A stretch of 64,000 bases of DNA from Lingula anatina (GCA_051362555.1 CM120643.1:15288644-15352643), one strand, 5' to 3'; shown: positions 35,040-64,000, counted from the first letter of the stretch. Numbers and translations: made by a program. The notes: generated by a model not told the origin, from the letters alone.

Positions 35040-35304
35040 GTCCAAGGTGTCAGGTGCATATAGCGACAATAATGCCAGGAGCGACAGTAATATCAATCTT
35101 GTGACAAGCACCAACCAGTTGGGGTGTGACTCTGCTAAAATGGATAAATGTTTTTAAAAACAATTTATAAAGCTCATTGCAACCATTATTAACAATGCAC
35201 ACGACGCACATGTTAGATAAATGTGATGAGGTTGATGTTCAACGAAAATATATTTAGAAATATCTGAATAAGATCTGTAGACATAGCTGACTTACTACAT
35301 GAAT

Positions 35305-35343
<39 letters not shown>

Positions 35344-36360
35344 TCTTTTGATATCAATTGCAAGACAATTTAATCATGATTTACGTATCGATATATTTCA
35401 TGTTGTCTCCGACGCTTATTTCAACATGGGCGTGTTAAATGTGGGGAAGTGTCATTTTGTTTTTCAGATGATGTGTGAATGATGTCTGAAATGACGTGTA
35501 TGTGTCTTAAATATTTATAAACACAAAATGTACCGTATGTGTTGTTCGACAAAAACGCGATTTTGAAATAGCTTGCTCGAGCTATTATATGCGAGCGCAC
35601 CTTTCACTACCCCTTAATAAATTCTGTTTCTTTTTGTGTCGAGTTCCTTCCTTTCATTCTTTTGATCCATGTCATTGGCATGCAAATAAGATCAATGTAA
35701 GGGGTCACACAGTCGTGTGGTAAGACCTCTCACCGTTAAAAAAGTAGATTTTAGTTGCACGTTGTAAATGTAACATAACTACTGGTGTTTTGTTGTAAAT
35801 GTAACATAACTAACGATGTTACGATTTTTCTGACCAATGAACCTTCAGACCATCGAGACGCCCCCCCCCCCCCCCCTTATTACTACTGCTTGACTTTGTT
35901 TAGCATTGTCATAGTGATTTTATTTATGCATGCGTTAGGTTAAGTTGGAGGGGGGGTCAGTTTTCATCGAATCCCCCTGAAAGTGGTACATTTGTATATC
36001 GGCTGAAACCAGTTTTAAACCCAGTATTTTCCCCCTTACAAAGTTCACAGTTTGGAGTTACTTTCTACAGATTACTACCGAAGCGTGTAAGGGAAACGGC
36101 ACCAAACGAAGATTAGTATCTCGAATGCTAACAATAACCATTGTGATATGTGTACTGATTGCGATAGCTGCGCTCATCATCTAAGCCTGCGCAATCTAGA
36201 AACCCGCTAGTCCAAACATTATAATACAGTTCAGTGTTTAACGACAAATGTTCATCAAACTCCGCCTGAGAATGTGTATGTAGTGTATTGAGGAGTAGAG
36301 GATATAGATTGTAGGTCGGTCACGTAGTCATGCCGCCGCAGCGAGGGAGAATATGTAAGG
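35040..36360 (+). pseudogene. Pseudogene copy of the membrane-anchored solute-binding-protein gene
   Basis: Exon 1 remnant ~35040-35125 (ATG replaced by GTG; GCGACAGTAATATCAATCTTGTGAC), exon 2 remnant ~36124-36268 (MLTITIVICVLIAIAALII*ACAI*KP, two in-frame stops), exon 4 remnant ~36283-36360 (GATTGTAGGTCGGTCACG...CCGCAGCGAGGG). Confidence 0.85.
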
Positions 36361-37806
36361 TGGATTTTTTTTAATATTTCATAAATGTTAATTTAAATGC
36401 ACATGTAGGGCAATTTTTCTTTTATAGAAATATTTTAAGCGTCATAATAAGGCGATCAAGCATGGCTCTACTTGAATATATCATACTTAAACTAAACATT
36501 CAAATCATGCATGTTGGTTGTTGCTTCACTCAGATGCACCGAAAATAGTTATGGATTTATACCTAGACGATTCGGCAATAGACGATTTTTAAAAATGTAA
36601 GGATACAGTTTTTTGAATGCCTGAATAAGTTAAAGTTATCTAAGACCAATAACAGATATTCATCAAAATCTTTCCCCAGTACGTGAAATTCATCATATGC
36701 TTTTAATTCTATTATTTCAAATTACTTATTCAGAATTATTATACAATATAGATCAATATGCTTGATTTTAGTTAAAATAACCATATGAGTTAAGGTAAAT
36801 ATTTCAACCAAATATTGACGGACAATGCACCCACCATTCGTTACTACAGTTTTTTTGGGAATTACAGAGACATTATGAATGTGGGGTCTAAATTCATTTT
36901 CACGAATCATGAATCATGCCAATGAAGTGATGAAGTTTGAAGTTTAAGCAAGTCTTGCCAATAAACAGTAAAATCTTATTTTTAGGCATACAGTGTAGGC
37001 TATAGTCAAAATAAAATCTTGGATTGATCAGCATCAGTATCGTATCACGGGCGGATTCAGGATTACTTGAAGGGGGAGGGGGAGGTCCATTTTAAAATGA
37101 ATCCAAGCACAATATTGGAAATATGTCAGAAAAAATTTAAAAGTCACTCCTTTTCACAGCAGTACTTTATTCACTTATTCTTTTAATGCTTATTGGATTT
37201 TCTAACTTATTTTGCAATGACTATTTAAATTAGATGTTTTTGACGATTGATCAATGCCTATGTCCTAGCAACGCCTTTTCAAAGCATGGCGCAGTCTCTT
37301 CCCCTCCTCTTTTTACCAAAATTAAGAGTGAATTATTCAAAAATGTCAGACCAGCGGCGTGTCACACTGCCCCGGATGTCACCCTTTACAATATGTGTGT
37401 CAATGAAACAAACGTGTATTGGAACGCGTATAACATGTATAAATATGAGCAGGGAAAGAATACCTGTTCTAACCAAGCAGCATTAACCACATTAACCTAA
37501 TAAAACACTGAAAATTAAGAAGAATGAAAAATGCTTGTAATGGACTTTTTATTCGCCTTCGCTAAGGCGTATATATCCATGAGTTTTGACTTCATCTTGA
37601 AAGGCAACTTATTTCAACACGGGAAGAAATCATTTAATTTAAAAAGAGAAGGCATACATTTTAACGTTTCTTTAAGCATTTTACATTAACTTTGCTTGGC
37701 TTTGACTGTAGCACTTATACATACTTAGCAGAGATAGTATTTTATTTTTTGCTGTTTGAAATTCGAACAGGCACAATCCGTGCCTTGCATAAGCAAGTTG
37801 ATTGTA

Positions 37807-39051
37807 CACTGTTGCTCAATATGGATAGCATATTCAGAGATTGTGTTACTAACGTAAGCATTAGTGCAGCCTAGCTGTATCATTGCAGATCGAAATGCTT
37901 GACATGCAAAAGAAACAACAAACACTTATATTGCACTTCCTGTGGTTTAAATGTTTTTTTTAATGGCCCCTGAAAACTACCACAGATTTTACTCAAACAA
38001 AAACTCTTAAAATTCTTCATGAAAGATTACAAACAACCTCAAAATTTCACACACATATCTTTAATAAGATTTCTTAATACAATTATTTTATCAAATGTGG
38101 TTGTGAACCCCTCCCTACGTGCACGATCGCGACAAAGTTCCGTTACGGGACGGGACATGCTGTTCATCAGTGTCACCAATCTTTGCTGGGAGATTCTGTT
38201 CCACTCTGGGTTTAAAGGTTGTCTGGTGAAAATTTGCTCCAGGTGGGTGTCTCCCTTTTACTGCTCTCCCTGATTCATCCCAAAAGATGTTCAAGTGAGT
38301 TTATACCAGGGCTTGAGGTGGGTGGGACATTAAATAGAATGGTGTTTCCGTTCATAAAATCTCTCACCAAACGGACATCATCAGGGATGGCAATGTCATG
38401 CTGCAAATGAAAATTGACCTGCAATATTGCGCGTGTAAATGTTGGGCGATCCTCCGTTTGATAGTTTGCTTGGGAAAAAGGTAGAAAAGGTGGGTGTGTG
38501 ATATTGTAGCATTGGCAATGGAAGATTTAGTGCGGGTTCTATGGCAATGTTGGTAATGGCACTGACATCACGGGAGTTGATGCATGGGGTCGGCCTCTGG
38601 ATTTTGTCAGAACCGTCATGAGCTACAATGCCGATCACAGCTCTCCTCCTGACTACTCTTTTATAGGAATTGCTGAGACCTTCGTCAGTAAAACCAACTA
38701 CCTGGTTCTCTTAAAAGACTAATATCAGTCGGTCCTGGCATGGCTTCACCTTTAATTTTGTGGAGGTCTGATATATGATCTCATCTACTCTGACAGGCTT
38801 CTTTATATGTGGGCTAAAACACATATTTTACAGCCAACTTAGCAACGTCTATTCTCATAACCTTTACAATCTTAATTTAAATTTGAAGCTGCCATCCGTT
38901 GACATGTGCTCATTCAATGTGCATTTGTTATGCCAAATGGTCATTGATTACTGTGTGGAAGAAAAAAGTCAAAATATCAATATATATTGACCTTTAAAAG
39001 CCTATAACAACCAAATCCTCGATGATGTGACAACCATTTTGAGTAACAGTG
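37807..39051 (-). mobile_element. Decayed Tc1/mariner transposon with both ends
   Basis: TIRs CACTGTT(G/A)CTCAA(T/A)ATGG, with TA at 37805-37806. Minus-strand transposase remnants FTDE (~38680), GIVAHDG, HDIAIP, SPGINSLEHL and EWNRISQQRLVTLMNSM, with stops and frameshifts. Confidence 0.85.
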
Positions 39052-39077
39052 CATTTGCCCGTGTCCTCTAATCCAAC

Positions 39078-40193
39078 ATGTCGGATACAAGAAGCGACAG
39101 TAATGTCAATCTTGTGACGAGAACCAACCAGTTGGAAGGTAATTTTGCCTTTCAAATGATTTGTATGAATGTTTTCTTTAACCAGGAATCATTTTGCGTT
39201 AACATTTTTATATAACGTTTATTGTAACCGGTGTACCATAAAAAACTGATTCTTTTAAAAGGTGACTCCCCAGTCAGATTTTCATAATGAAAAGGTGACT
39301 CCCCAGTCAAACTTTCATGATAAAATTTTGACTCCCCCCACAAAACTTCGTAAATTTGATTTTATTTGAGTATATGACTCTGGGAGTCAAGATTTCATGG
39401 GGGTAGTCAGATTTTTATAATGAAATGTTGACTCCCGAAGTCAGATTTTCATGTTGAACCGGTACTCAGTACGACTTGACGAGCACGTACATTATGCATT
39501 ACGTAACTAATGGAACACAATAAAATGTGGTAACGTTTCTGAGCTGTGAACAGTGATTTTATTTTATATAACAGTTATAGGGACGGATTTAGGCCGTCTT
39601 CTGGGTCTTCCGGAAGACGGTCAGATTTTCAAGTTTACAATGAAAGGTATCTAATTTTTTCTGTTGGAAGACGGTCAAAGAATGAAGGATGGATCAACAA
39701 ATATAATATGGAAGACTGTCAGAAAATATCTCTGGATCCGCCCCTGTTAAACTCATACGTTTTTTTCACTCATAGCGTTGCAATTTCTTTGCGATTTCAA
39801 AGAATGCTTTATGTTGGTTGGTAAAGCTTGTATTTCGTCTTTCTTAGTAAAGAATTTGCAATTTTGAATCACTTTCGTCAAATTAAGTGCGTAAATTTCT
39901 TCTCTCCAAGGATCGCGGTTGCTGACAATTTTAACCTTAGTGATATGTGGCCTGATTGCGATAGTTGCGCTCATCATCTCAGCCGTCGCAATCTCCAAAC
40001 CCGCTGGCTCTGACATTACAGGTCAGGGTTCAACAACAAATATTCAGCAAACTCAGTCTGCAGTTGCAGCCAGTACCTATGACGCCATCAACCGATATCA
40101 GGCCTTCAATGAAAAAAGAATTTACACAATTGCCCTTGGATACGATACTGGGGCTTTTGATTATAAGTAAGTAAAAAAATAGTTGGCATACAG

Positions 40194-40241
<48 letters not shown>

Positions 40242-40793
40242 TGGCGGTTTTAGAAGGGGTATCAAGGGGGTCTTCAGCCCCCTTTGGTTTCCGAAAATAA
40301 TCACTAATATTTCCTTCTTGAAATTAGAATTTTAACAAGCTGATTTATAGTTCTTAACCGTTCCAAATGGCACCGTTTGACCTTCAAAACAGCAAAATAT
40401 TTTAGGGACCTCCAGCGGGCCCCGAACCCCACCACAAAGGGGCCGAGGGTCGGCTTTGAATCCGAGGTCTGTCATTCCTAAAAAACAGTGACCCCCCCCC
40501 CCCCCCACCCTCTTTCAAATCCTGGACCTGCCTTTGTCTTACTATCTGTATATCGCATTCAGCATACAATAATGCAAAAATTTATTTAATATATTATTTA
40601 AGCATAAATCGTTTTTTTGCTATAATTTAACCAATTTTATGAAAGTGTGACAACATAAATTTATGGGCCATGGTAATTTTTTACCTCTGAAGTCACCGAC
40701 CTTTAATGGGTTGTCTCTTACATGTACATATCCCATGTTTATTTTTTTAAAAATTATTTTCATAAAAAATATTAATTATGTGTGTGTGAGTGC

Positions 40794-40838
<45 letters not shown>

Positions 40839-42002
40839 AATGGTAGGCGCAAATTTAGTAAATTAAACTTATATCTTTAATTCCATATACCTTTTCAGTG
40901 ACGACAGCGGATTTAAAGTTGGATTCTTTCCTGAAATAGTAGACGCAGGTAATGTAAAAGTTCTTGTTTGATTCGTGTTTAAGCATACTTTGGTATCAAC
41001 AGAACTGCGGAAAATGTCAACAATGAAATTTTAGATTTAGATAATATAAACTGCTTACCTTATTCATTGCACCATCTAATCAACGTGAGCGGTGGGTATA
41101 CACATTGTTTTACGCCCGATCCGTATCGTCAGTCGGAGCCTGCATGCCGGCGGATACAAGTATCTCCCAATATGAGAATAGTTTCTATAGATGACCAAAA
41201 AAAGAAAAAGTTACTGTTAACTTTCTAGCCCTCAAATTTTCAAAACTAGCAAAGATACACCCATGGTTACTATTGAACTTAAATTGGAAATCATATATTG
41301 GCAACTTTAATGCGACCTTGAATATGATCTTTGACCTAATTTTCGCCATGAACTGTACTTCGCAAATTTTCTGGTCCTTATATCAGCAAAACTATAGTAG
41401 AAGAGATACAGATCACAATTTCTATCAACTAAGATAGAAAATCATATTTTGTTAATTCAAATGCAACCTTAAATTTAACCCTTGACCTGTACACATTTTA
41501 GCCCTTTTATCTCCTAAACCATATTTAGTTACTGTTGAACTTGAATAAAAATGTATATCATATCAGTCCTTTTCCAAATTGAACGATCAAGTTCATTTGA
41601 TCTTTATTCCCAAAAGATTCCTTTCAAGTTAGCTTTGGTATTAATAAATGTGAAGTAATTTAAGGGAAAATATGTTCCTTCTCTGCACAAATATCTATAC
41701 CACCAAGTCCACTAAAACGAAATCTTTCATATATGATGGTTTTCTTGTGTGTGGTGATTGACATTTAATTGTACAGTACATAGCACACAACGTGCCAGTA
41801 CACGGGTTCTTCATATTGCAAAACCCTTTGAATCTATACATTGGAGTTTCAAATGTGGCTCCTGAGTTACTGGTCGAAAAAGTACATTTTTACAAGTGTG
41901 CGAGCCACAGTGGGCCAAAATTTAAAACCCTTCATAGCTCTTTTTAGTCACTGTCTGTGTATAGATACTCAGGTGGTAGTGTTGCCTCTCTGTTCTTGTA
42001 GT

Positions 42003-42041
<39 letters not shown>

Positions 42042-44599
42042 TTTTGAGTGTGCGTGGAGGCGGGTTTAGATTGTAGGACGGTCACGGAGCCATACACAAA
42101 CTGTATGACATCGGAGAGAGGGCAGCCGCAGCGAGGGGGGATAGGTAAGGGTGATTTTTAGTTACATGATTATAAAGCGTTCCTTTAAACGCATAGTTTT
42201 CAATTCTACTTTCTTCTCATAAAGTGAAGTTGAAAAAGGTGTTTTGGTGAATCTAACAACAATACTGCTCAAATTGGCTAGGTTGAGTTACATTTTGTTT
42301 ATCGTTGAACAAGATATTGTAATTTGAGAATTTGAATGTAATTTTACCCTGGATTTTGTCTATATATGGAATAATTTCAGGACTTATGGCAGGTTGGTAC
42401 GACGCCTGCACCGGGTGGCTGGCCACACGTCAACGAAAGCAGTTTTTCTCATTTTCCAAGCCGTTTATGAAACCTTTCGAGGTCTATTTCTTCGCCTTTC
42501 CTGGGTTTAACCCATTCAATATCACAGGGAAGAAAATAGGTTAGTTAACATGTATTTTGATATTAGTAAAGATCATTTAAATTAAAAATTTCTGCGACCA
42601 GTCATTCTCATTTCAACTCTTCCAATCCCGAGTACCCGGCACTTTACTGAGAGATTAAAAAACACTTTACAAAGTTACCTAACTGTTTCAGCCTATTATA
42701 GAGCTAGGTGCAATACCGCCAAATTAGTCAGTTTCCATTTATATTATATTTCTTTATCCTCTTCGAGCCATGATCGTTGTATACTGACTCCTTACAGGAC
42801 TGGCCAGCGGTTGGTTCGCAAACGAAGCCTGCATAGCCGGACTGGACCAAGTGGCTGGAAGAGAAGTCCCGCACTCCAATGTTTTCCACGCCCAGACACT
42901 TGACGAGCTCCTGGCTATGATCCAGAACGGAACTGTAAGTATTTTACTATGTTGCCAGATTTGTAACGTTCCTTCTGAATTAGACAATACACTGTTATTT
43001 TAATAGCAGTCAAGTCTTTAGACTTTTTAAAAACCTTTTTTTTTTCATTTTCCAATTACTTGGTAGCACGTTCAAAACTTGCAATTTAGTGCGGGGCTGT
43101 TGTTGAGAAGACAGCATTAAGAATATTAAGCTTGTTGGTTACTTAGGGGCCATTCAGAAAGAATGATCCGAGTACTTGCTGATCCGCCGACCAAATATGG
43201 CCGACCACAGTTCAAAAGCAATGCCGCCAATTCCTGATGGTCTCCCCGACTCCACACGCGCCTTTAAACGGATTCAATATCTACTCTGTTCAATTGCTAG
43301 GCGCCTACAGCGACAGCGTGTAGCGCTCGTAGAAGATTATGCATTTTTTTTTCTTTTTTTTTGCTATAAGCATTAAACTGGACAAAAAGTTATACCGGTC
43401 TTTTACGGCATTCTCGCATGACCTAAATTTGGTTTTAAATCTCCAAGACTGAGAGTACGAAGTGTTGATGAAAAAGTTTCAATGAAACTGATTTTCATCG
43501 TCCTTTACACATCTCTTCAATTGCCCAATTTCGGCTTTACCATCGTCATTGAAACGGCTATGCGGCAACCAAAAATATTTCCAAGATCATTAGCTCGATT
43601 AGCGTTGAACCACATTTTTAATAAAAGGCATAGAGTCTCTCGTCGAGTCTTCAATTTAAACTTTGCAATTAGGTGATGGTGAATTGTTTTCTACAGCAAT
43701 CATTTCATCCTGTCTAAATTTTACAGGTAGATGCGGGGTTTGGAACAGGATCTGCGTTAAACATCAAAATCTCTGGCACTAATATCCAAAAGTTCCCCTC
43801 GGACCCCATCTTCTGTAAAAATACCGCAGGAGGAGGAATGATGACCCGCAAAGACAATGACTTTAACTCTAAATGGAATCAAGGGTTTGAGAAACTTGTT
43901 TCTTCAGGTCGTTTCAAACGCCTATGTGATGAGGCACGAACCAAGCACGGTAAGTTGGAGTAAATCTGTTGATAAGCAATGTCAGTCTTCGTTACTTAGC
44001 ACCTTCATTAATATCTCTTAATAATATGGTAATTGGTGTGACTAAAATGCAGGCAGTGCAACGCCAGGGTAAGTCAGAAGAGGCGCTGATTTCAAGGCTA
44101 GCAAAGGATTGTTAACAACGACCACACTTAACATGTATTTTCATATGTAGGCGTTTGAGGTCAACAAAACGAGATCCGTTTTGGTTTAGGGTTCCTTCGA
44201 GTACAAACGTCGGTACGAAAATGACACTGCTTATTATTTTCTATTTAAATTTTAACGTAGCCTTATGGGTCTGTTAGTCAAAAGGGTTTACCAAGCGGTA
44301 ATACATATCGCCGTCTTATGCAGTTTCGTAGACAGTTCGGTTGCCTTCGTGAAACGTGCATGAGCATAATCTTTTTGAACGTCTGGTTGGTGCATTACAT
44401 CGTGTATAAATGGACTAATGAAAGTTGCCATTGCCAGTGACAGTTTGGATATATACCATTTTCTTTTAGGTTCTGATATTATGTGCTTCGGACCTGTATA
44501 CCTGTATTCGGGTTTCGTTTGATAAAAACGTGATTTCATTTCATTCTAACTTTTGTCTCTACAGGTCATCGCGGTGAGATTAACTGCGTGGATGCCTAA
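39078..44599 (+). CDS. Copy A: type II membrane protein with extracellular SBP family 3 / PBP2 (periplasmic amino-acid-binding protein-like) domain, 338 aa
   Basis: Exons 39078-39138, 39911-40166, 40899-40948, 42049-42144, 42381-42539, 42798-42934, 43727-43949, 44565-44599 join into an open frame: MSDTRSDSNVNLVTRTNQLEGSR-TM(LLTILTLVICGLIAIVALIISAVAI)-S/T/Q stalk-RIYTIALGYDTGAFDYNDDSGFKVGFFPEIVDAVC..AGLDC...GLMAGWYDACTGWLATRQRKQFFSFSKPF...ITGKKIG...TLDELLAMIQNGTVDAGF...GMMTRKDNDFNSKWNQGFEKLVSSGRFKRLCDEARTKHGHRGEINCVDA. Confidence 0.88.
39226..39462. mobile_element. Small element with internal GACTCCCCAGTCA subrepeats in intron 1 of copy A
   Basis: Bounded by AACCGGT at both ends with imperfect inverted termini. 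The paralogous site in copy B (~46671) has a single AACCGGT. Confidence 0.6.
40239..40535 (-). mobile_element. GGCGGAT-terminus MITE family copy in intron 2 of copy A
   Basis: Termini AGTGGCGGTTT...AAATCCTGGACCTGCC. Reverse-oriented relative of 47316-47559 and 51146-51410; similar fragments at ~37049 and ~39578-39746. Confidence 0.55.
41085..41610. repeat. TGACCTT-rich interspersed repeat in intron 3 of copy A
   Basis: Internal repeats GTTACT(A/G)TTGAACTT, ATCATAT, GACCTTGA. Absent from the short intron 3 of copies B, C and E. Confidence 0.5.
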
Positions 44600-44607
44600 A
44601 CAACACA

Positions 44608-44903
44608 TATCCGTTACCTTCACCTCGATGGCTTGACCATTCGACTAGGTATTCATAAACTTCATCTTGTGACTAAACCTCAGAACTAAGCATCAGTAAT
44701 GATGGCGCAACCAAAGGACAAGACATCCGTGACCTTCACCTTGATGGCTTAACCGCAGGACTAGATATCGGTGACCTTCACCTTGATGGCTTAACCATTC
44801 AACGAGGCATTCATAAACTTCAACATGATAACTTAACCAGAGAACTAGACATCCGTAACCTGCACTTTTGACAAGAGACACCCTTGACCTTCACCTGGAT
44901 GGC
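44608..44903 (+). repeat. Degenerate ~42-bp tandem repeat directly after the stop codon of copy A
   Basis: Unit approximates ATCCGTGACCTTCACCTTGATGGCTTAACC(N)AGGACTAGAC, about 7-8 units. Homologous arrays lie at ~49992-50225, ~57172-57388 and ~60610-60670. Confidence 0.8.
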
Positions 44904-45104
44904 AAATTGTGAAATTTTGCCAAGAAGGAATCTACCCCCTGTATAAATAACTAATGGATAAAACCGAACATCCAACAAAATTTCATACTTATACTAAAAT
45001 GACCATCAAAAGGCTAAAACTGGCAATTCAGCGTACCCTTTATACACATACCAGTTATTTGTCTCACTAAAAAAGGAATTTTTGGATTTTGGCCGTTTCC
45101 ATGG

Positions 45105-45733
45105 TTACGTTACGTTATCAGCTCTCGTCTGGCAAACGATTTGTTGCAGAAACACAGGGGTCTGAGGATGGGCCAACAGTCTTTGGGTCCTGATATTAAT
45201 CCTACCGAACACCTGTGGCATGAATTGGAATGTGCACTGCAGAGGAGAACCAATTCCCAAATAATCTTGACCAATTCTGCCACGCTCTTTAGGATGAATG
45301 GGACAATATCCCACATAACAGAATTGTTACCCGTGTTGAAGGCTTGTCGCGCCGTCTACAGGAGATAATTGCAGTACGCGGTAGACGCACACGCTGTTAG
45401 GCACGTGATCTTTAACGAGCACACCCTAATGCTAATTGTCCGTGAATTTGGGGACATTTGATGGCGTCTTTTCAATTTTATAGACATTTCTTTACATCTG
45501 TAGAAGTCACAGTGAAACAGTGGATTTGAGGGGGTACCTCTTATAAATTTGACTAAATGGTATAAAATATGTATATTTTTACCTCTATTTTGTATTTTTT
45601 AAACCATTAATCATGTAAGACACGGTATCTGTAATAAAAAGCACTATTTCTAACAATTTACAGCTGTGAGGTGATCATTTGTAATTAAAAGTACATGAAA
45701 ATGGGGGTGGGACAACCTTTTTGACCAATGCTG
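45105..45733 (+). mobile_element. Tc1/mariner 3' remnant with transposase C-terminus
   Basis: GPDINPTEHLWHEL (SPDLNPIEHLW motif), then frameshifted EWDNIP...LSRRLQEIIAVRGRRTRC*. Ends in TIR GGGGTGGGACAACCTTTTTGACCAATGCTG followed by TA. Confidence 0.88.
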
Positions 45734-46521: not shown

Positions 46522-47267
46522 ATGTCGGATGCAAGGCAAGGCAGTAATGTCAATCTCGAGACGAGAACCAACCAACTACAAGGTAATATGCCTTAAAAAG
46601 ATTACGACATATGTTTTCTTTTCACCAGACAGCTACAGCTGAGATTTTCTGTACTCGATTTCATTTATTGGAACCGGTACTCAGCATGATGAATATGTAC
46701 GGAGGGGTGACATAAGTACAAGGGCATTGCACCATCGAATTACTGTATTCGCATTTGTTCGTTAACAGTGATTTGGGGTTTGTTGCTCGTCTAAACCTTG
46801 ATGGATGTTCATCCATGTGCAGTACCAGTGTAAAGGGTGTCATCGATGGTGTCACGCCCTTCTGGCTGTCAAGTTTCTACCATGGTAAATGTACGGGAGC
46901 TCACACATGAAGGAAGAAAATAATTTTTTTCAGGTTAGTCCCTTTATTGCTTTTCTTCCAGCCACCTTCGTACTGACAACAACCATTATGATAAGTGTAC
47001 TGATTGCGATAGTTGCGCTCATCATCTCAGCCGTCGCAATCTCCAAACTCGCTGGCTCTGACATTACAGTCCAGGGTGAAACAACAGGTACTCAGCAAAC
47101 TCCCCAGCCTGCAGTAGCCTACTCACCCAGTACCTATGACACCAGCCGGTGTCAGGCCTCCAATAGAAAAAGAATTTACACAGTGGCCGCTGGATACGAT
47201 ATTGGGCCTTATGAATATAAGTAAGCAGAAATATAGCTCCCATAACGGGATAGATGTGTGTGTCTGT

Positions 47268-47298
<31 letters not shown>

Positions 47299-47368
47299 GG
47301 GGAGCAAAGGTGGGGTAGGGGCGGAACCAGGATTATTTGAAGGAAGGGTCTGCAAATGCCAGGTCGGC

Positions 47369-47399
<31 letters not shown>

Positions 47400-49982: not shown

Positions 49983-50403
49983 CAACAGCTGGGATCTTTA
50001 ACCTTCACCTTGATTGCTAAATCACAAAACAATGCATCCGTTACCTTCACCTTGATGGTATCAAGACAGAAATATAGGAATTTGTAACTTTCACCTTGAT
50101 GGTTAAAACAAAGATGTAGGCGGCCGTAACCTGAACTTTGATGTCTTAATCCCAGAAGATATCTATGACCTTCATCTTGATAGCTAAACCACAGGACGAG
50201 GCATCCGTAAACTACACCTTATGGCAACTTGTTGAACTTACAAGAAACCACGACGAAATATATAAATGAATCTAATGAAAAGAATCGATAATAAATCCAC
50301 TGATGATGTGCGAACTTCATGTTGATTATAGGATGACCACCAACGATATCAATTTCAGACCCGCACTGCTTTTTTAAGGAAGCGCAACTGTAATGCCAAC
50401 AGG

Positions 50404-50405
<2 letters not shown>

Positions 50406-50467
<62 letters not shown>
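50406..50467. repeat. (TA)n microsatellite
   Basis: About 30 TA units. Paralogous positions (~57556, ~60830) have only a short TTATTACAT.TATATG. Confidence 0.95.
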
Positions 50468-50468
<1 letters not shown>

Positions 50469-51410: not shown

Positions 51411-52441
51411 AGTGAAAGATACATTGTACGCTGCAAATACGACGTCTCCCATTTAGATTTGCACACATATGCACCACATCTCAATATGATAAAACATGCT
51501 TATATGGGATATGATTGGACGACAGACAGCCTGTAGTGAAAAACCCCATGGTCAGACAGCTCTGGAGTGATTTTAGCCTGGAATGATACAGGCTCCCATC
51601 GCATGAGTTACAGGATCTACTGACAAGTTGCAGCAGGATGCCAGTGACCACATTGTTGAAATATTAAAAAAAATATATTTCTAATGTTTCATACATGGGT
51701 TTTTTCATACATTGTCTGATCATAAAAGAGGTCACGCACAAGTACGGAAAGGACCCGTACAAGAGGCGAACTCGCCAGGACATTAATTTGAACAGTTAGG
51801 TGTGAAATATTATCTGAAGTTATTTATACATCTCAGTTTCCCATGTGTGAATTTTATCAGACAAAGAAAGACTTTTCCGCCGATTGAATTTAATACCACA
51901 CCGTGTATAAAACATTAAAAATATTACAATATTTTCAATACTGTGGTCTCTGACAGGAGGGAATGTGAATTAACCTGAGGTCCAAAGCCAGACAGTTAAC
52001 AACCACTGTTGACGTCCTACGGGTTGGTTTACTGTTATTTTCTGAATCAATATTTCATTGGAATCAATTTAGGAATGATTTTTATGATAAGTAAGCGTTT
52101 TCTTGCTCTGTGAGCAAACTTTTTAGACCACGGTTTTGCCCAGTTTGTTAATGAATTTACGCTTTGTTAATAAGCTTTACATTTCAATCAAGGGACTTGT
52201 TATTTAAAGTAAAAGTGTGAACACACACGTTTGGATATTATTTAACTGTGCTCGGTTTTGGTTGCAGGTTTTATGCACACCTTGTAGCCTTTTGTAGGGT
52301 ATAAAAAGTAGTCACATTTGCATAAGTAAGCTGGTTCTTTTTTTTTTTACTCTTTTTAATGTTAACAGGCACAATCCGTGCCTAGCATGAAGAGATGGAG
52401 ATTATATTACATTCGTCCTTGCTCAAGACCTCCAATCCAAG

Positions 52442-55400
52442 ATGTCGGATGCAAGGAGCGACAGCAATGTCAACCATGCGACGAAAACCACCCAAGGTAA
52501 TTTGCCTTAGAAAAGATTTGGACAAATGTTTTCTTTAACCAGAAAACATTTTATTAAAGTAGCGATTTTCTGTACTCGATTTCATTTATTAAAACCGATA
52601 CTCAGCATGTAGAACATGTACAGAGGGATGACAAAAGTGCAGGGGTAGTGTATTATCTATGTGAATAGTTCGTTGTGTGATATGGAGGGTCCCGTTAGAA
52701 AAAAGTGATTTGTGGTTTATTGCTCGTCTGAGCAGTGATGGATTTTCATCCATGTGCACTATAAAGGGTGCCATCAATGGTTTAATGCTTTCTGGCTGTC
52801 AAGTTTTTACCATGGTGAATGTACGGGAGCTTACACATGCAGAACAAAAATAAAAGATTTTTTTAGGTTAATCCCTTTCTTTCTTCCAGCCACCACGACA
52901 ATAACCATAGCGATATGTGTTCCGATTGCGATAGTTGCGCTCATCATCTCAGCCGTCGCAATCTCCAAACCCATTGGCTCTGACATCACAGTCCAGGGTG
53001 AAACAACAGGTACTCAGCAAACTCCCCAGCCTGAAGTAGCATACTCACCCAGTACCTATGACGCCAGCCGGTGTCAGGTCTCCAATAGAAAGAGAATTTA
53101 CACGCTGGCCATTGGATTCGATATTGGGCCTTATGAATATAGGTAAGTAAAAATAAGCAGAAAAAATGGGGTAGATGTGTGTGTGTGTGGGGGGGGGGGG
53201 TTACATAAAATCTGCAAATCTGATAACTTAAACTGTCCGTCTAACTTTTCAGTGACGACAGCGGGTTTCAAGTTGGATTCGGTCGCGACCTTATAGACGC
53301 AGGTAAGGTTCTTGTTGAAATACCCCTTGATAACAGTAACACTGCGAAAAATATCAACTTGAAAGTCTATGGTTTATTCATTTAATTATTCATTTTTATT
53401 CATTCAATTATTTCTTTATTTGAGTGTGTCAGGAGGCGGGAATTGATTGCAGGATTGTCAGGGAGCCTACCACCAACTGCATGTTCTCAGAGAGAGGACA
53501 GCCACACAGAGGAGGGATAGGTATGGAGCATTCTTTTATTTATCTCATAGAAGATGGTTGTTAAAACGAATTTCTGCTCTTACTTCATTTCATGTTTTTC
53601 TTTCTTTCGAAAACGCGCTTGGAAGCAAAATTTTTCATGGGCGAAGTGAAGTTGACAAAGTTCAATGTCAGAAAATAATCAAAGTGGTTTGGTATTCATT
53701 TTAGTTAGGTCAACTTTTTATATGGCGATCGATGTTGAAGACAGTTTGTTCAGTTTTATCCTAATATGTATTGACTAAGACTGTTTTGTGCTATATTGGA
53801 CTAGGACCGAAGCTTTCCCAATATGTTTTACTTTTGTTTAAAGTTGAACATAATATTGAAATTCAAGTATTTGAATATAAATTTTACTTTGAATAATCCT
53901 ATACATGGCATCATTTCAGGACTTATGGAAGGTTGGTACGACGCCTGCACCGGGTGGCTGACCACACGTCAACGGAAGCAGATTTTCGCATTTTCCAAGC
54001 CGTTTTTGAAACCTATCGAGGTCTATTTCTACGCCTTTCCTGGATTTAATCCATTCAATATCACTGGAAAGAAAATAGGTGAGTGAGTTATCTTGTATTC
54101 ACGTGTTAGAAGAAATAATTTGAGTTAAAATTTCTCCAACCAGTTATTTAATTATTCACTTCAGCTCTTTTTCTCAAGAGTACCCGCTCTTTTTCTGGTA
54201 TTACTATTTAACTGGAGTATAGCATGTAGATAGTTCCGAACTATATATAGATTGTATAAATTGATGGAATATTTTCACAAATTAATGTATTTGCGATTCC
54301 AAAAAGGTCAAACTACAATGTAAGACAAGATTCGCCATTCACCTAGGTTATTAGTATTTTATTTTTATTTCAACTATTAACTCAATTTAAATTCATTAAC
54401 TCCTGATATTTTAAACGTTTTTTTTTTCATTTTGGTTCTTTTTGGTGCTCAGTTGTAATGTTACATTTCATGAAAAATTCCAACACCAAATAAGGATGTC
54501 GTGTAGCTGCCACAAACCTATGGAACCTGCATGACGTCATCTATCTTTGATCCAAATCTTTAAGAATACTGCATGTGAGATTTCACCAGCTCGTTGGTGT
54601 TTTAATATAATTTCAAGGTCAACCCTCAAGTTACAAATTTAAATAATTTTTGGGGATTTTTTCTTCCTTTTGTACCTTTTCGTGATCAATTATGGTTAAA
54701 TAATCGGCAAATTATGGAAAAAGTTAATGTTAAGAAAAACAGGAATTAGATCAGAAAAGCGGTTATCCAAAGGTGATATGTACTATTAAAAATTTAATGA
54801 CATAGTCATTATCTCGGGGAGCTGTCACACACGTCCTCTATTCTTGAGGTTCTAACAGAACCCGTTTCTGCTGTTTGTTGGCTCAGATGAACCCAACACT
54901 TAAGAACGCCTGCCTTAACTCATCTCTAAAATCGGCTGGTCCTCATTCGTGCTTAAAGTACGATGAAGAGCATCTCAATATGTTGCCATCAGCGTATCGT
55001 GTAATGTCGTATTCAGACTAAGTAAGATCTCTTTACATAAATGTTTACGTCAAATTTGACCGCAGTACTGAACACTTCTATTCAGATAATGGATATTTAC
55101 GGGAATAGAGGATCCCCCTGTTTGAGACCCCTAGCGACACTTTGAATGTCTCCAAAAAAACTTAAAAAATTATACATTGCAAAATAAATATATTTCCACT
55201 ATTCGGAATCAAAAGCCTTTTCTCAACCTATTGTAACAGAAGAAAGAATGTTGGTTTGGGTGCTTTGGGACAAAAGGCGACAATTGCAGGGACAAAAAAG
55301 GAAGGAAATGAACTTTTTATCTCTAGCTGTCACCCCGCATTTGCTTCTTAAAGGCATCTGCTATTAGGAATAATAAATCTTTTTAAGTATAAATAACTTC

Positions 55401-57161
55401 AGTTCATATGTCCATGGAATTGTCAAGGAGGACTTTGGCGGTCTAAATCATTTGTGGTTCTTACACACTTGCTTTATTTTTCTGGGAGGGGGGGGATAGC
55501 ATTTGGCGCGAAGATGCCGTATTGGATACCATTAAATACAGTGCATGTACGCATCTATATATCTGAAACAACAGCAACGCCTTGCCTTGAATGGGGCTTT
55601 CATGTAATAAAACTACAATTGCTGTATCTTGGGTAGAAAAACAATAAACAAAAGTCAAGGCCAATTTTCGCTTTAAAGTTCTATTATGAAATAAACCGCA
55701 AGCCGACACCTGTTCCCTTAACGACGTCAAAAAAGTCAGAATCGGCCTCGGAATTAAAATTGGCATAGACAAAGTTGAGTGTTAAAAGTCAACCGTTGAC
55801 CAATAAGCTCTGTGACCAATATCCAAAATTGGACTTTGTTTTGTCGGCTAACAAAATTGACCAGGGCTATGCCTACAAACGAGTCTCTAAAGCGGCCCAT
55901 GGGTGTTAACATGCATGCTAACTCCTTACAGGACTGATAAGCGGGCTCTTCACTAACGAAGCCTGTCTAGCCGGACTGGACCAGGTGGCTGGAAGAGACG
56001 TCCCGCACTCCAACGTTTTCCACGCCCAGACGGTTGACGAGCTCGTGGCTATGATCCAGAACGGAACTGTGAGTGTTTTTCCCATGCTACCTCTTTTTGT
56101 AACTCTTTTTAATACGCCCATGTGTTTTAAATCCCACAGCATCCCAGTGTTCAGACTTCACCCCTTTTCATTATTGTGAAATAAGCTTTATGACTTAACA
56201 TTGGCCAGAAAAGCTACGTTAGGCTACTCGCTACTATGATCTACTGGTTAAGCTGCATATATACGTGAAATATTTCGCATCACTAAGTAACCCTCTCAGT
56301 CTTAACTGTTTAAACAGATGCTGTATGTATATAATATATTCCAGCTTTACCATCGTCATTCATTTGTTATTACAACCAAATACGTTTTCAAGATCATCTA
56401 ATGAATTTCAGCGGTTAAATACATTGAGGCGCATCAGCTCTCGACAATTATGAACCTTTTTCAGTGATGTCGAAATTTGATGTTTTCTTTACCAATCATT
56501 TTATACTTCCTAATATACAGGTAGACGTGGGTTTTAGCGCGAGGACTGCTTTGGCCACCAAAATCAATGGCACTAATATCCAACACTTCCCCTCGGATCC
56601 CATGTTCTGTAAGAATGCTGGACAGCCTGGAATGATGACCCGTAAAGACAATGACTTCAACTCTAAATGGAATGAAGGGTTTGAGAAACTTGTTTCTTCA
56701 GGACGTTTTAAACGCTTATGTGATGAGGCACGGATTAAGCACGGTACGTCTGGGCAGTTTTGATTATTTATAATTACCAGTAGTATGCTCTTAATAACTA
56801 AGGATTTATTACTTAATTTACAATACGTATATTGATAACTGCAAATATACACTGTACAGGTTAGGTAATGTAAGCAGTGTCGAAAGAAACCGCCACAAGA
56901 GGTTCTGTTTTCAAGACTAACAAAGTATTGTTAACAAAGCCAATATTTTTTTTCCTCAGTCGAAGCTTCCCTTATAGAATATCAATACAAAATTATTACA
57001 TTGAAAAAAAGTTATCAGATTAAGATATGGCTTAATTGTGGTAATGTTTAATGTATAAATATTACATTCATGATCGACACGTGATTTCATCCAACGTCAC
57101 ATACATTGTAACGTTTGTCTCAACAGGTCATCGCGGTGAGATAGAGTGTGTGGATGCCTAA
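52442..57161 (+). CDS. Copy C: membrane-anchored SBP3/PBP2-like protein, 335 aa
   Basis: Exons 52442-52496, 52890-53142, 53253-53302, 53425-53520, 53920-54078, 55932-56068, 56521-56743, 57127-57161; open frame ending HGHRGEIECVDA*. Confidence 0.88.
54960..55260 (-). mobile_element. L1/Tx1-type LINE reverse transcriptase remnant in intron 5 of copy C
   Basis: Minus-strand motifs in correct order: EKAFDSE*WKYI (~55205-55222), RGLKQGDPLFP (~55100-55132), ITRYADG (~54985-55005; degenerate YADD). Confidence 0.8.
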
Positions 57162-59095
57162 CAACAGCTGGGATCTGTAACCTTCACCTTGATTGCTGAA
57201 TCACAAAACAATGCATCCGTTACATTGACCTTGATTGTTACAACACAGAAATATAGGAATTTGTAACTTTCACCTTGATGGTTAAAACAAGGATATGGGC
57301 GGCCGTAAACTGAACCTGATGTCTAGATCACTTGGCCTTCAGTTTGAAAGCTAAACCACAGGACTAGGCGTCCGTAACTTTAATGGCAACTTGTGGAACT
57401 TACAAGAAGCCAAGGCGAAATTTATAAATGAAACTTATGGATAGAATCGAAAATTTATTGATGATGTGCGAATTTCATGGTGATGAAAAGATGACTACCA
57501 ACGATATCAGACCCGCAGTGTTTTTTAAGGAAGCACAACTGTAATTCCAACAGGCTTATTACATGTATATGCATAACTTCAGTGCTGCAGTTGACAATTA
57601 CCATTACAATTGACTAATTTTATTAAGTTCTTTTTTTGTTTTTGACAAAATCAACAGTCTCATGAAAGAAATGTTTACAATCGAAACAAGCTGTTTTATT
57701 TTTATTTTTCATAAGACTCCTTTTTTAATTTAATAGACTAATTTAGCAAAGAAAAAACGACCAGGCGGCGCCGTGCTGACTGCGGTAAGGAGAAGTGGGT
57801 TATATAATGCTAAGAACTACGATTTGTTAAAATGTTTAAAATAGGTAATTCTGACACTTCCTGTTTGGGCATAGCCTCGTTTTGGCCTACGACAAAGACC
57901 ATAGGTTAACTTACATGTATTAACAAAATTTGAAAAAGGTGATGCTTTTGTTTAAGTTGTTATACATGTATTTACATACATGAAGGCATATTTTACAAAT
58001 ATGAGAGGAGGATAGTGTATCAGGCAAATACACATTTTGAATTACTACAGCTGGATCCATCAATTAAAAATCGGATTAAGTTGAGTCCGTAGCCAACGGT
58101 ATGCGCCATATCTAACTAGCTGCGACCCTATTCAGCAGAATGAAAATGGTATAGTTCGGCAGGTTCATTTGCGAAATATTTTACTTTTTCAGAAACCATG
58201 TAGAAAATAAAGATTCAAACGAAAAAACCTCAGCTTTTCAACTCATAGCCATTAACGCGGGTTCTTTTGGTTCGTGATAACTTTGCTGACTTGGACTCAA
58301 GCACTGAGACAATTAAACGTGTATTGGAACGCGTATAACGTGGTTGAATTTAGGGATGGAAAGAATACCTGTTTTACCTAAGCAACCGTGACAGCTTTGA
58401 CCTAAAAAATCCCATGAAGATAAAGAGGAGTAAGAATGCTTGTAATTTACTTTTTATTTGCTTTTGCTGATTAATGCATTCCTATGGCGTGAACTTCAGT
58501 CTAAAGGGAACTTATACAGAAACATTTGCTTATCAATTTTCTAAAAAAGTCACATCTTTGTTTAGAGCGAAATCTGCACAGACTTCTTCCACTGATTGAA
58601 TTTAATACCACACCATGTATAGAACATTAAAAATATTCCAATATTTTTAATACTGTGGTCTCTGACTGGAGGAGGATGTCAATTTAGTTGAGGTCCAAGG
58701 CCAGACAGTAAGCAACCACTGTTGACGTCCTCAAGGTTGGTTTACTGCTTTTTTTTTCTGAATCAGTACTTCATTGGAATAAATTCATGGATGTTTTTTA
58801 TGATAAGTACGCTTTTTCTTGCTCTGTGATTAAACTTTTTAGACCGTGATTTTGCAGTTCGTTAGTGATTTTACACGTTGTTAATTGGCAGTATATTTTA
58901 ATCAAGTGATTCAACAGTACTCGGTTTTGGTTGCAGGCTTTATGCACACCTGGTAGGGTATAAAAAGTAGTCACACTTGCATAAGTAAGCTGGTTCTTTT
59001 TTACTCTTTTTAATGTTAACAGGCACAATCCGTGCCTAGCATGAACAGATAGAGATTATATTACATTTGTCCTTACTCAAGACCTCTAATCCAAG

Positions 59096-60599
59096 ATGTC
59101 GGATGCAAGGAGTGACAGCAATGTCAACCATGTGACGAGAACCATCCAAGGTAATTTGTCTTAGAAAAGATTTGCACAAGAACTCCTGATATTTTTGAAC
59201 CTTTTTTTTCATATTGGTTCCCTTTGGTGCTCAGTTGTAAGGTTACATTTTATGAATGCACCAAGTAAGGATGATAAGACTAAATGTAACTTAAAACCAG
59301 GCCGTTAAGGTTTTAATATATATATATGTCAAGGTCTACCCTCAAGTTACAAGGAGTGGGGAGGGGGGGGGAGATTTCATGTAATACATGTAAGACTACA
59401 ATTGATGTACTTTGGGTTCAAAAAGAACAAACAAAAATCAATGTCAATTTGCAGGTTAAAGTCTAGTCTTTAAAGTCAATTGTTGACCAATAAACTCTTT
59501 CATTAATATTAAAAATAAAAAACTTTGTTTCGGCGACTATCAAAGTTAACCAGACCTATGACTACAAACATGAATCTTTTAAAAGCGGACCATGGGTGTT
59601 AACATGCATGCCGACTCCTTACAGGACTGATAAGCGGTTGGTTCACTAACGAAGCCTGCCTGGCCGGACTTGACCAGGTGGCTGGAAGAGACGTCCCGCA
59701 CTCCAACGTTTTCCACGCCCAGACGGTTGACAAACTCCTGGCTATGATCCAAAACGGCACTGTGAGTGTTTTCCCATGTTACCTGTTTTTGTAACTATTT
59801 TTAATACGCCAATATGTTTTAAATCCCACAGCATCCCAGTGTTCAGATCCCTTTTCATTAATGTGAAATAAGCTCTATTCTTTACCAACCATTTAATACT
59901 TCCTAAACATTACAGGTAGACGTGGGTTTTAGCATGGGGACTGTTTTGGCCAACAAAATCAATGGCACTAATATCCAACAGTTCCCCTCAGATCCCATGT
60001 TCTGTAAGAATGCCGGACCACCTGGAATGATGACCCGTAAAGACAATGACTTCAACTCCAAATGGAATGAAGGGTTTGAAAAACTTTTCTCTTCAGGACG
60101 TTTTAAACGGCTATGTGATGAGGCACGGAGTAAGCACGGTACGTCTAAAAATACTATTGATTAACAATGTCAGTAATAATAGGCAGTTTTGATTACTAAG
60201 TATGTTCATAATAATTAAGGATCTATTACTTAATTTACCGTTCGTATATTGATAATTGCAAATTCAGGCTAGGTAATGTAAACGATGTCGCAAGGATCCG
60301 CTACAATAGACGCTGTTTTCAAGACTAACGAAGGGATGTTAACAACGCCCATGTTTTTTTTTTTTTTTATTTTTTTTATTTATTTTTTTTTTTACGGTCA
60401 AAGCTACCCTTATAGGATATCAAAACAAAATCATTACATTGAAAAAACAAAGTTATCAAATTAAGATATTGCTTGAGGTGATGCTTCATGTATAAATATA
60501 ACATTCATGACACGGCACGTGATTTCATATAACGTCACATACATTGTAACGTTTGTCTCAACAGGTCATCGCGGTGAGATTGACTGTGTGGATGCCTAA
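59096..60599 (+). other. Copy D: internally deleted SBP3-like gene (exons 2-5 missing); exon 1 plus exons 6-8 still splice in frame (149 aa)
   Basis: Exons 59096-59150, 59625-59761, 59916-60138, 60565-60599. Intron 1 sequence is fused to intron 5 sequence at ~59180. No stops or frameshifts in the retained exons. Confidence 0.85.
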
Positions 60600-62459: not shown

Positions 62460-63245
62460 ATGTCAGATGCAAGGAGCGACAGTAATGTCAATCATGTGAC
62501 GAGAACCAACCAGTTGGAAGGTAATCCTGCCTTTCCAAATATTTTGATAAATGTTTTCTTTAGCCAGAAAAGATTTATAAAATCAGTTATTTTTATGTAC
62601 GCGAGATTTTTTTCAAAGAATGATTTGGCGAACATGTGAATCATGACATAACTGATGAATACAATATAAAAGTCCAAAGGGAAGGTAACATGGAAAATAT
62701 GTGGTTACCAAATTTGACGCTCCTATGGTGGTTTTAACAAACTTTAAGTTCCAACATATTTACTAATTTGTAAAAGTATGATCAACTCTTATTACATTCT
62801 TGATATAAGCTTTCGTTGAACGCATCGCATTTCACTGAGATAATCTACAGCAATTTACTTCACAGGTGGTTTCTACAGTGTGCATTCTTATCCTTATTAA
62901 GAGTTGTCACTTGCGAATGTCTCTTATTTGATTAAGTGCTTAAATATACTTTCTTCCAGCCAGTCGCATACTGACAGTAACCATAGTGACATGTGTTCTG
63001 GTTGCGATGATTGCGCTCATCATCTCAGCCGTCGCAATCTCCAACCCTGCTGGCTCTGACATTACAATCCAGGGTACAACGGCAAATATTCAGCAAAATC
63101 AGCCACCCAGTAGGGCCTATGACGCCATCAACCGATATCAGGCCTCAAACAATAGAAGAATTTACACGATTGCCGTTGGATACGATACTGGGCCTTATAT
63201 ATATAAGTAAGCAGAAGCATTGGCCACATGCCGTGTGCGCGGGAG

Positions 63246-63284
<39 letters not shown>

Positions 63285-63654
63285 CTGTGTGTCAGAGAGA
63301 GAGAGAGAGAGAGAGGGTAAAATCTGCATATCTGATAAATTTAACTTTCCGTATAACTTTTTAGGGACGTCAGCGGATTCCTAATTGGATTCAATCACGA
63401 CTTAATAGACGCAGGTAATCAAAATTTTCTTTTGAACAATTTGTTTCGTTGTATAACATCCATTGATAGCAATAATACTGCGAAAATATCAACTTGAAAG
63501 TTAATGGTTTATTTATTTAATTAAAAAATTTTATTCATTCCATTATTAATTTTTTAAGTGTGTCAGGAGGCGGGAATTGATTGTAGGGTTGTCAAGGAGC
63601 CTTCCACCAACTGCATGTTCTCAGAGAGAGGACAGCCACACAGAGGAGGGATAG
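62460..63654 (+). CDS. Copy E: membrane-anchored SBP3/PBP2-like protein, exons 1-4 (continues past the window end)
   Basis: Exons 62460-62520, 62960-63206, 63365-63414, 63559-63654 are open and phase-consistent. Intron 4, homologous to that of copy C, runs to 64000. Confidence 0.85.
63249..63315. repeat. (GT)n/(GA)n compound microsatellite in intron 2, shared in position by copies A, B, C and E
   Basis: GT runs at 40196-40239, ~47255-47282, ~53176-53189 and 63248-63280; GA runs at ~40800-40830 and ~63294-63315. Confidence 0.9.
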
Positions 63655-64000
63655 GTATGGAGCATTCTTTTATTTATACCATAGCAGTTGGTTGTTAAAA
63701 CCTATTTCTTATATTGCTTCGTTTTATGTTTTTCTTTCTTTCAAAATCGCACTTGGAAGCAGAGTTTTTAATGACTGGGTGAACTGAAGCTGACAAACTT
63801 TAATGTCAGAAATAATCAAAGTGGTTTGGTATTCATTTTAGTTAGGTCAACTTTTATAATTATATGGCGATCGAGGTTGAATACAACTTGTTCAGTTTTA
63901 TCCTAATATGTATTGACTGAGACTGTTTTGTGCTATATTGGACTGGGGCTGAAGCTTTCCCAATATGTTTTACTTTTGTTTATAGTTGAACATGATAATG

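Follow-up and report, generated by a model that had tools for sequence, protein, structure and literature searches.

Binding-protein-assisted capture of solutes is textbook bacterial biology. The present analysis concerns a tandem gene cluster in a 64,000-nt stretch of the genome of the brachiopod Lingula anatina (GCA_051362555.1 CM120643.1:15288644–15352643; hereafter the window, in whose positions all coordinates are given). Within it, positions 35040..64000 hold spliced animal genes predicted to encode a two-lobed, bacterial-type solute-binding domain on a stalk and a single hydrophobic helix. The domain has the fold of solute-binding protein family 3 (SBP3, cluster F) and is nearer to the bacterial proteins LAO, HisJ and ArtJ than to the domains of animal ionotropic glutamate receptors (iGluRs). 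It represents a real, apparently undescribed variant of a known fold.

In animals, the periplasmic-binding-protein II (PBP-II) fold is known mainly from inside glutamate-gated channels (PMC549065). Stand-alone PBP-II proteins encoded beside bacterial Cys-loop channels have been proposed to cooperate with the channel. They resemble the Lingula proteins in being channel-free, and their suggested role is to sense or concentrate a ligand on behalf of another protein in the membrane; they differ in that they belong to bacterial operons and their role is a proposal only, whereas no partner gene was recognised in the Lingula window (PMC549065). For ligand recognition, PMC5740067 provides a reference: in LAO, Ser72 and Asp161 hold the amino group of the ligand; in OccJ, where that Asp is missing, affinity for Arg is about 1000-fold lower and falls in the micromolar range; and NocT (Gly97, Ser207), which lacks both residues, binds opines and none of Arg, Lys and Orn.

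Literature searches gave no description of the family, in line with an earlier note on this DNA, which suggested that it could be an uncharacterised system, although subscription journals and supplementary tables of invertebrate genome or proteome papers may list the genes. The main text of the Lingula genome paper contains no mention of solute-binding, SBP or periplasmic, and one of its supplements contains none of solute-binding, SBP_bac or PF00497. A metazoan glutamate-receptor survey excluded sequences without the M3 motif, so that channel-free SBP3 proteins would have been filtered out (PMC6307864). In the accessible part of a sponge preprint, PF00497 is mentioned only inside iGluRs.

Gene Copies and Exon Structure

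Exons were located by motif and tblastn and then read by coordinate. All copies are plus-strand tandem paralogs:

~35040–36370, plus strand: copy A, a decayed remnant with an exon-1-like piece, an exon-2-like piece with stops and a degraded exon-4 trace (tblastn and blastn against the intact copies)
39078–44599, plus strand: copy B, complete, 338 aa; exons 39078–39138, 39911–40166, 40899–40948, 42049–42144, 42381–42539, 42798–42934, 43727–43949 and 44565–44599
46522–49982, plus strand: copy C, complete, 339 aa; exons 46522–46582, 46962–47220, 47624–47673, 47784–47879, 48166–48324, 49014–49150, 49310–49532 and 49948–49982
52442–57161, plus strand: copy D, complete, 335 aa; exons 52442–52496, 52890–53142, 53253–53302, 53425–53520, 53920–54078, 55932–56068, 56521–56743 and 57127–57161
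52890–53142, plus strand: exon 2 of D, with the predicted signal-anchor helix (about residues 21–44), the stalk and the first strand of the binding domain (hydropathy and models)
53920–54078, plus strand: exon 5 of D, with the YDAC-GW-T--R motif, Arg170 (LAO Arg77) and Leu165 (LAO Ser72), spanning the iGluR channel-insertion point
59096–60599, plus strand: copy E, exon 1 and exons 6–8, with exons 2–5 missing
62460–63654, plus strand: copy F, open exons 62460–62520, 62960–63206, 63365–63414 and 63559–63654, the remainder lying beyond the window end

Copies B, C and D each consist of eight coding exons with open frames, separated by GT-AG introns of phases 1,2,1,1,1,0,1. The tandem amplification proposed in the earlier note is supported. 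The note's count of at least six copies of an eight-exon gene holds for tandem paralogs but not for complete genes: three are complete (B, C and D), F is cut by the window end, E is internally deleted and A is decayed. Copy D is identical over 335/335 residues to the L. anatina RefSeq protein P0007 (LOC106158026), which independently confirms its gene model; C is 94% identical to P0004, and B shares 72–82% identity with full-length RefSeq paralogs. Exon 7 alone, used as a query, retrieved 10 L. anatina RefSeq proteins, and Pfam searches with single exons gave weak signals in three of ten (E 0.02–0.05).

In copy A, the expected ATG position is empty and stops lie inside the exon-2 remnant. Copy E has a hybrid first intron, about 30 bases of which resemble intron 1 of D before the sequence becomes like intron 5 of D and C; its missing exons reflect either a deletion or an assembly collapse, and it would encode 149 aa in frame, without the anchor and without the Arg. 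Among the RefSeq models, isoform P0003 skips exon 5 in frame, which removes Arg170, and P0001 appears to join a C/D-type front to a B-type back, either by gene conversion or as a chimeric model.

Protein Layout and Fold

The layout given in the earlier note was recovered in B, C and D: an 18–20-aa first exon is followed by a single hydrophobic helix, a stalk modelled with low confidence and a domain of about 250 aa that carries eight Cys and NIT/NGT sequons. Two AlphaFold2 models (mean predicted local distance difference test score, pLDDT, 78 and 87) contain a helix at about residues 17–44, a disordered stalk in which pLDDT is at most about 50 and, starting near residue 85, a confidently modelled domain. 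A type II topology and glycosylation are predicted, as are disulfides 121–128, 138–161, 216–280 and 317–332. Cys138/161 and Cys216/280 are lost in pairs among sequences that are related and not independent, a pattern that supports the second and third of these bonds. Across the family, an N-terminal hydrophobic segment is found in 100 of 184 proteins (72 anchor-like, 28 signal-like) and a C-terminal one in four, while none has three or more. The anchor helix has kept its sequence in brachiopod, annelid, priapulid and amphioxus members, which suggests that it packs against a membrane partner or itself.

Profile, sequence and structure searches agree on the SBP3/PBP2 fold that had been proposed. 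Copy D (P0007) scores 47.7 bits against PF00497 (gathering cut-off 26.4), eight of nine Lingula proteins scanned lie above the curated cut-off, and PF00497 is matched by all 67 diverse members (E ≤0.1), PF10613 by 5/67 and weakly (best E 3e-4). TIGR01096 gives 31 bits and does not reach its cut-off of 256. Sequence matches in the PDB are led by ArtJ (E 1.4e-8), and the best 60 obtained with two family profiles are bacterial binding proteins or enzyme derivatives, with no iGluR among them. With the first model as query, the Foldseek rows listed are all bacterial amino-acid or opine binders (E about 4e-15 to 3e-13). With the second, VIA-align ranks highest a PBP-like kinase sensor (Z 23.0), LAO (22.7), a His/Glu/Gln/Arg/opine binder (22.2) and ArtJ (21.7), a top group with root-mean-square deviations (rmsd) of 2.3–3.1 (LAO, 3.0 over 223 aligned residues). 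The cyanobacterial receptor GluR0 follows at Z 21.2 and animal iGluR domains at 17.6–18.8, no animal or plant channel domain exceeding 18.8.

With LAO, HisJ and ArtJ the Lingula family shares the fold, the motif order, the arginine equivalent to Arg77, a contiguous two-lobed domain and the Cys38–Cys45 pair, Cys121 and Cys128 aligning with Cys38 and Cys45 of HisJ and LAO. It differs from them in having six additional Cys and about 11 inserted residues after Cys138, in lacking the Ser72/Asp161 pair, in the aromatic residue at the Ser120 position, and in its introns, its long N-terminal anchor and stalk, and its sequons; identity to solved SBP3 structures is 14–21%. Two details of the earlier description need adjusting. 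The SBP3 motif order is present, but P(F/Y)EY does not occur in every copy (B has AFDY), and Arg170, which had been reported within an intact TRQR, is found in all three complete copies although C reads SRQR where B and D read TRQR. The family further shares the PBP-II fold, an FSKPF-like segment and the carboxylate-binding Arg with iGluR, ionotropic receptor (IR) and GLR domains and GluR0. Unlike these, it lacks a channel between the lobes, the M3 motif and the N-terminal domain; its structural scores with them are lower, and a type II-like anchor precedes the domain. The domain is contiguous and free of channel segments, as had been stated: there is one hydrophobic helix, and the best six-frame match to the M3 motif SYTANLAAF in the window is 5/9, with none within the gene models. 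Nor is there an intron at the junction of the two iGluR half-domains (S1/S2), since the channel-insertion point (after FSKPF and the next strand, at about residue 192) lies inside exon 5 (D residues 152–204).

Binding Pocket and Ligand Class

Pocket positions were mapped with the LAO contact table (PMC5740067) and an alignment with E. coli ArgT, and residues were counted in 183 domains (≥190 residues) from 195 proteins, 10 near-duplicates or faulty models having been dropped. In this alignment, LAO Arg77 corresponds to Arg170, Ser72 to Leu165, Asp161 to Ala257, Phe52 to position 135, Tyr14 to 97 and Ser120 to 210. Arg170 is present in B, C and D and in 172/183 domains. The Ser72 and Asp161 equivalents in the three copies are, by alignment, Leu165 and Ala or Thr257; family-wide, Ser/Thr occurs at 165 in 31/183 domains, Asp/Glu at 257 in 22/183, and both together with the Arg in 3/183. 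Position 210 is aromatic in 148 domains and position 135 in 125. Near-invariance among the polar pocket residues is confined to Arg170, Asp159 (in the structural D-A strand) and the Cys pairs.

From these residues we infer that the carboxylate site has been kept and that the amino subsite has been rebuilt and made more hydrophobic. The loss of the Ser72/Asp161 pair in B, C and D makes the designation "amino-acid-binding", the default of the earlier note, doubtful; its fallback of other small acids fits better, the carboxylate Arg being kept and the amino clamp lost. The ligand is probably not a plain amino acid. The resemblance to OccJ and NocT lies in the kept Arg and the missing Asp161 acid, NocT also lacking Ser72 and binding N-substituted, not free, amino acids (PMC5740067), and NocT ranks high in the Foldseek search. 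The signatures of OccJ (Ser91/Asn202) and NocT (Gly97/Ser207) are not matched by Leu165 with Ala or Thr257, however, and both proteins serve ATP-binding cassette (ABC) importers, so the opine-binding proteins may be taken as a functional analogy only. In the nearest canonical plasmid SBP3s (L014 and L015), the Asp161 acid is also missing (Tyr), and these lie in ABC operons ending in an arginase-family gene, a weak lead that may hint at guanidino or amine ligands.

The pocket varies more than the rest of the domain among nine Lingula paralogs (eight from RefSeq and copy B). Over 15 pocket positions, a set that omits an LAO position lacking a counterpart and assigns another to its neighbour, the mean is 2.6 residue states, compared with 1.76 domain-wide (p 0.0007) and 1.71 at positions matched for family-wide variability (p 0.0005). 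Gly163, Leu165 and Arg170 are fixed. Although the comparison is not a test of positive selection, such a variable pocket fits a ligand repertoire, and the paralogs may be tuned to different ligands.

Selection and Transcripts

Over the binding domain, dN/dS (nonsynonymous to synonymous rates) among B, C and D is 0.31–0.39, indicating purifying selection and a function that has been kept. Four RNA runs with the same species label (about 6, 6, 6 and 25% of each run) were mapped to 55900–57400, which covers exons 6–8 of D only, and matched 114, 113, 6 and 151 reads, respectively. Read depth falls on the exons, and both stranded runs with good depth indicate plus-strand RNA. The exon 6–7 joint is crossed by 10, 14, 0 and 8 reads in the four runs and the exon 7–8 joint by 22, 31, 3 and 21, with reads running through the stop; loose read ends in front of exon 6 carry sequence from the end of exon 5. 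No joint leaving exon 7 other than to exon 8 was found in the four runs. Splicing onto downstream channel exons, which the earlier note named as a finding that would count against it, is thus not seen, exon 7 being joined to the stop-bearing exon 8. Five reads of one run continue beyond exon 7 into intron-like sequence. Three minor non-GT-AG joints (3–4 reads each) lie behind the stop in a repeat region, and these suggest length variation there.

Distribution and Origin

The Lingula profile retrieved 40 proteins, including 23 from Lingula (22 loci), 1 from Owenia, 6 from Branchiostoma and 1 from Priapulus. Among 1.84 billion representatives searched with HMMER, 135 matched at E ≤1e-30, 436 at 1e-10 and 2440 at 1e-3, and the family survey drew on the best 150 of the 2440. 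Organism names were obtained for 7 of 30 examined, namely Lytechinus, Saccoglossus (2), Owenia (2), the diplonemid Namystynia and the prasinophyte Prasinococcus; one further match is an MMETSP transcript, and a further search added Glandiceps, Amphiura and Lamellibrachia. The Cys-rich family is therefore found in six invertebrate phyla (brachiopod, annelid, priapulid, amphioxus, hemichordate and echinoderm lineages), with orthologs at 30–40% identity in the five other than brachiopods. Among the organism-named matches, which are a minority and do not imply absence, none is from a vertebrate, arthropod, mollusc or cnidarian. Some sea urchin, brittle star and acorn worm members are labelled "ABC transporter arginine-binding protein-like" or "L-arginine-binding protein-like" in databases; these labels were transferred by similarity, and no study of the labelled proteins was found. 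The family is wider and older than the earlier note had proposed and is not brachiopod-specific.

Bacterial members also exist, on one metagenome contig and in two metagenome-assembled genomes (MAGs; a gammaproteobacterium and a Terriglobia member); they are intron-free and carry all eight Cys. The disulfides were therefore not added in animals, contrary to the idea of an animal domestication step, and the additional disulfides either arose before the animal lineage or extend across its boundary. No permease was recognised by eye in the open reading frame (ORF) lists of the three bacterial loci. A search of 300 further genomes of the first bacterial host's phylum gave no match at 1e-15; a GTDB scan with a bacterial alignment gave none, and a single-protein scan gave the two MAGs. 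No family member was found in IMG/VR contigs or phage records, and the plasmid matches are weak canonical SBP3s (12 records, E 2e-7 or worse). The Atlas look-alike clusters listed are 98–100% bacterial, a result that speaks neither for novelty nor for absence.

A tree was built from 62 domains of the family, with 10 canonical SBP3 domains as bacterial outgroups after a mistranslated one had been dropped; in it the family forms one clade (SH-aLRT, an approximate likelihood-ratio support value, 98.5). The best tree nests six bacterial domains among eukaryote-like ones; a topology with bacteria as sister is not rejected (approximately unbiased test, p 0.106; 2000 replicates, fast search), and animal monophyly is weakly supported. 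The ancestry of the family is bacterial-type, and the tree is compatible with transfer in either direction between bacteria and eukaryotes. If the family was inherited once in animals, it would be at least as old as the protostome–deuterostome split.

Several members depart from the single-domain layout. The long members examined are tandem repeats of the binding domain (2 to 8). P0146, P0143, P0062, P0109 and P0152, two of them from protists, have 2 to 8 tandem SBP3 domains and lack the 138–161 and 216–280 Cys pairs; one has thrombospondin repeats and several have a terminal hydrophobic tail, and in the protist protein P0146 one domain has the full Arg/Ser/Asp triad. P0156, P0068 and L001–L003 are rare bacterial or bacteria-like eight-Cys members, some doubled or tripled, one of which ends in a C-terminal membrane tail that resembles a MYXO-CTERM sorting signal; an insertion-sequence-like ORF pair is found about 0.7 kb away from the L003 copy. 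P0205 and P0206 appear to be circularly permuted SBP3s in which the end of the second lobe comes first.

Proposed Function and Alternative Explanations

The proteins are proposed to act as a surface-tethered clamshell that captures a small acid together with a separate transporter or receptor, a reading to which we give about an even chance. The spliced genes would yield the two-lobed bacterial-type domain on its stalk and single hydrophobic helix, and this type II-anchored, glycosylated and disulfide-stapled domain would be displayed on the outer cell surface. There, Arg170 would bind the carboxylate of the ligand and the clamshell would close on the small acid, more likely an N-substituted amino acid, a betaine-like compound or another organic acid than a free alpha-amino acid. 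The bound acid would then be held for, handed to, or signalled through the membrane partner, which would be needed because the predicted cytoplasmic tail has about 20 residues and no recognised signalling domain. A broader version, in which marine bilaterians have kept a channel-free, tethered or secreted capture family since before the protostome–deuterostome split and use it to supply an animal transporter or receptor with small acids (osmolytes, opines, dissolved organic acids or signals), is more tentative and itself rather doubtful. A free-standing eight-Cys family in at least six invertebrate phyla, with 22 loci in one brachiopod and a variable pocket, points to an overlooked cell-surface means of taking up or sensing small molecules dissolved in sea water. 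If true, it would be a third use of the PBP-II fold, as a binding-protein-dependent uptake or chemosensory system in animals. The family is also tractable: the domain is a single soluble unit of about 250 residues, Arg170 provides a clear control, and amphioxus and sea urchins have members.

A number of observations weigh against capture of a modified acid by an anchored protein. The pocket mapping derives from sequence alignment and not from model coordinates, and the loop 94–97 allows two registers, in which LAO Asp11 corresponds to Gly94 or to Asp96. Conserved acids occur elsewhere (Asp96 in 74/183 domains, Glu101 in 73/183, Asp/Asn213 in 142/183 and Glu214 in 82/183) and could replace Asp161 and hold a positive charge. 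According to PMC5740067, OccJ N202D behaves like the wild type, so that the Asp alone is not decisive. As to the anchor, 84 of the 184 proteins have no N-terminal hydrophobic segment at the threshold used (fragments or weak signals), and the AVA-IS sequence that closes the helix might serve as a signal-peptidase site. The paralogs compared in the variability test are related to one another, and chimeric models may be among those from RefSeq. Finally, the RNA reads are 90–99% alike to D and none reaches ≥99%, so that they come from paralogs or another population and not provably from copy D itself.

The same acids at 96, 101, 213 and 214 speak for a protein that binds free amino acids of the ordinary kind (Arg, Lys, His, Gln), either at the surface or after secretion; other residues would hold the alpha-amino group, and the protein would aid epidermal or gut uptake. 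Arg170 is kept, the closest solved structures and the NCBIfam model are Lys/Arg/Orn/His/Gln binders, and the protist P0146 retains the full triad. The Ser72 and Asp161 equivalents are nevertheless missing in B, C and D, and together in 180/183 domains, and TIGR01096 stays far below its cut-off, which leaves this explanation fairly unlikely. Somewhat less probable is a partner-free sink or buffer at the surface or in mucus, whose role would be to sequester, store or clear a small acid; odorant-binding and acetylcholine-binding proteins are analogues. Signal-peptide-like, anchored and multi-repeat forms all occur, and no gene next to the three bacterial members was recognised as a permease; the conservation of the anchor helix across four lineages suggests instead that it packs against a membrane partner or itself.

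An ectoenzyme on the binding-protein fold, like cyclohexadienyl dehydratase, appears improbable. This enzyme and its ancestors are among the PDB matches (E 7.6e-11; Z 17.7–18.8), the pocket is remodelled and the bacterial members stand alone, but these matches rank below plain binding proteins, and near-invariant polar pocket residues are limited to Arg170, Asp159 and the Cys pairs. Still less credit is due to the suggestion, made in the earlier note, of a channel-less derivative of an iGluR or IR ligand-binding domain, a question judged by sequence and structure, since the tree has bacterial SBP3 outgroups only and no iGluR sequences. The common fold, the Z-scores of animal iGluRs and GluR0 and the weak PF10613 matches would be expected of such a derivative. 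Sequence and structure are nevertheless nearer to LAO, HisJ and ArtJ, whose Cys38–Cys45 pair the family shares; PF00497 matches every member tested, no iGluR is among the best 60 PDB sequence matches, the window has no M3 motif, and members occur in bacteria and protists. Bacterial contamination, mis-annotation or a recent brachiopod-specific transfer, with which the bacterial Atlas look-alikes would agree, is refuted by seven GT-AG introns, spliced reads, animal neighbours (twisted gastrulation (Tsg), a class C receptor domain and aquaporin) and the orthologs in five other phyla, and has practically no chance.

Flanking Sequences and Neighboring Genes

Other features of the window are as follows:

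52300–52305, plus strand: TATAAA, some 140 bases ahead of the start codon of D; further TATAAA at 58959 (before E) and 62330 (before F)
44700–44865, no strand: 42-bp tandem repeat in four copies, behind the stop of B
321–3752, minus strand: exons of a class C (metabotropic glutamate receptor-like) gene, with PF01094 on 3090–3752, more than 30 kb from the cluster
13702–17554, minus strand: short-chain dehydrogenase (Pfam), 3-ketodihydrosphingosine reductase-like by eye
19691–21835, minus strand: Tsg (Pfam)
28956–32989, minus strand: aquaporin gene (Pfam), directly upstream of the cluster and divergent

The class C receptor, dehydrogenase, Tsg and aquaporin genes upstream place the cluster on an animal chromosome. 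No ABC permease or ATPase was recognised by eye in the ORF lists of the window, Pfam having been run on 10 of its non-cluster ORFs only. Donor- and acceptor-like sites follow the TATAAA before D, E and F, and together these likely mark a promoter and a short non-coding first exon. Units related to the 42-bp repeat also occur behind C (about 50004–50171), D (57183–57269) and E (60621), that is, behind every copy having a stop codon. At 37740–37790, 1.3 kb before the ATG of B, lies a piece like the upstream region of D and E, which suggests an insertion upstream of B. An ORF fragment at 45018–45368, without a Pfam match, resembles the C-terminal motif of Tc1/mariner transposases.

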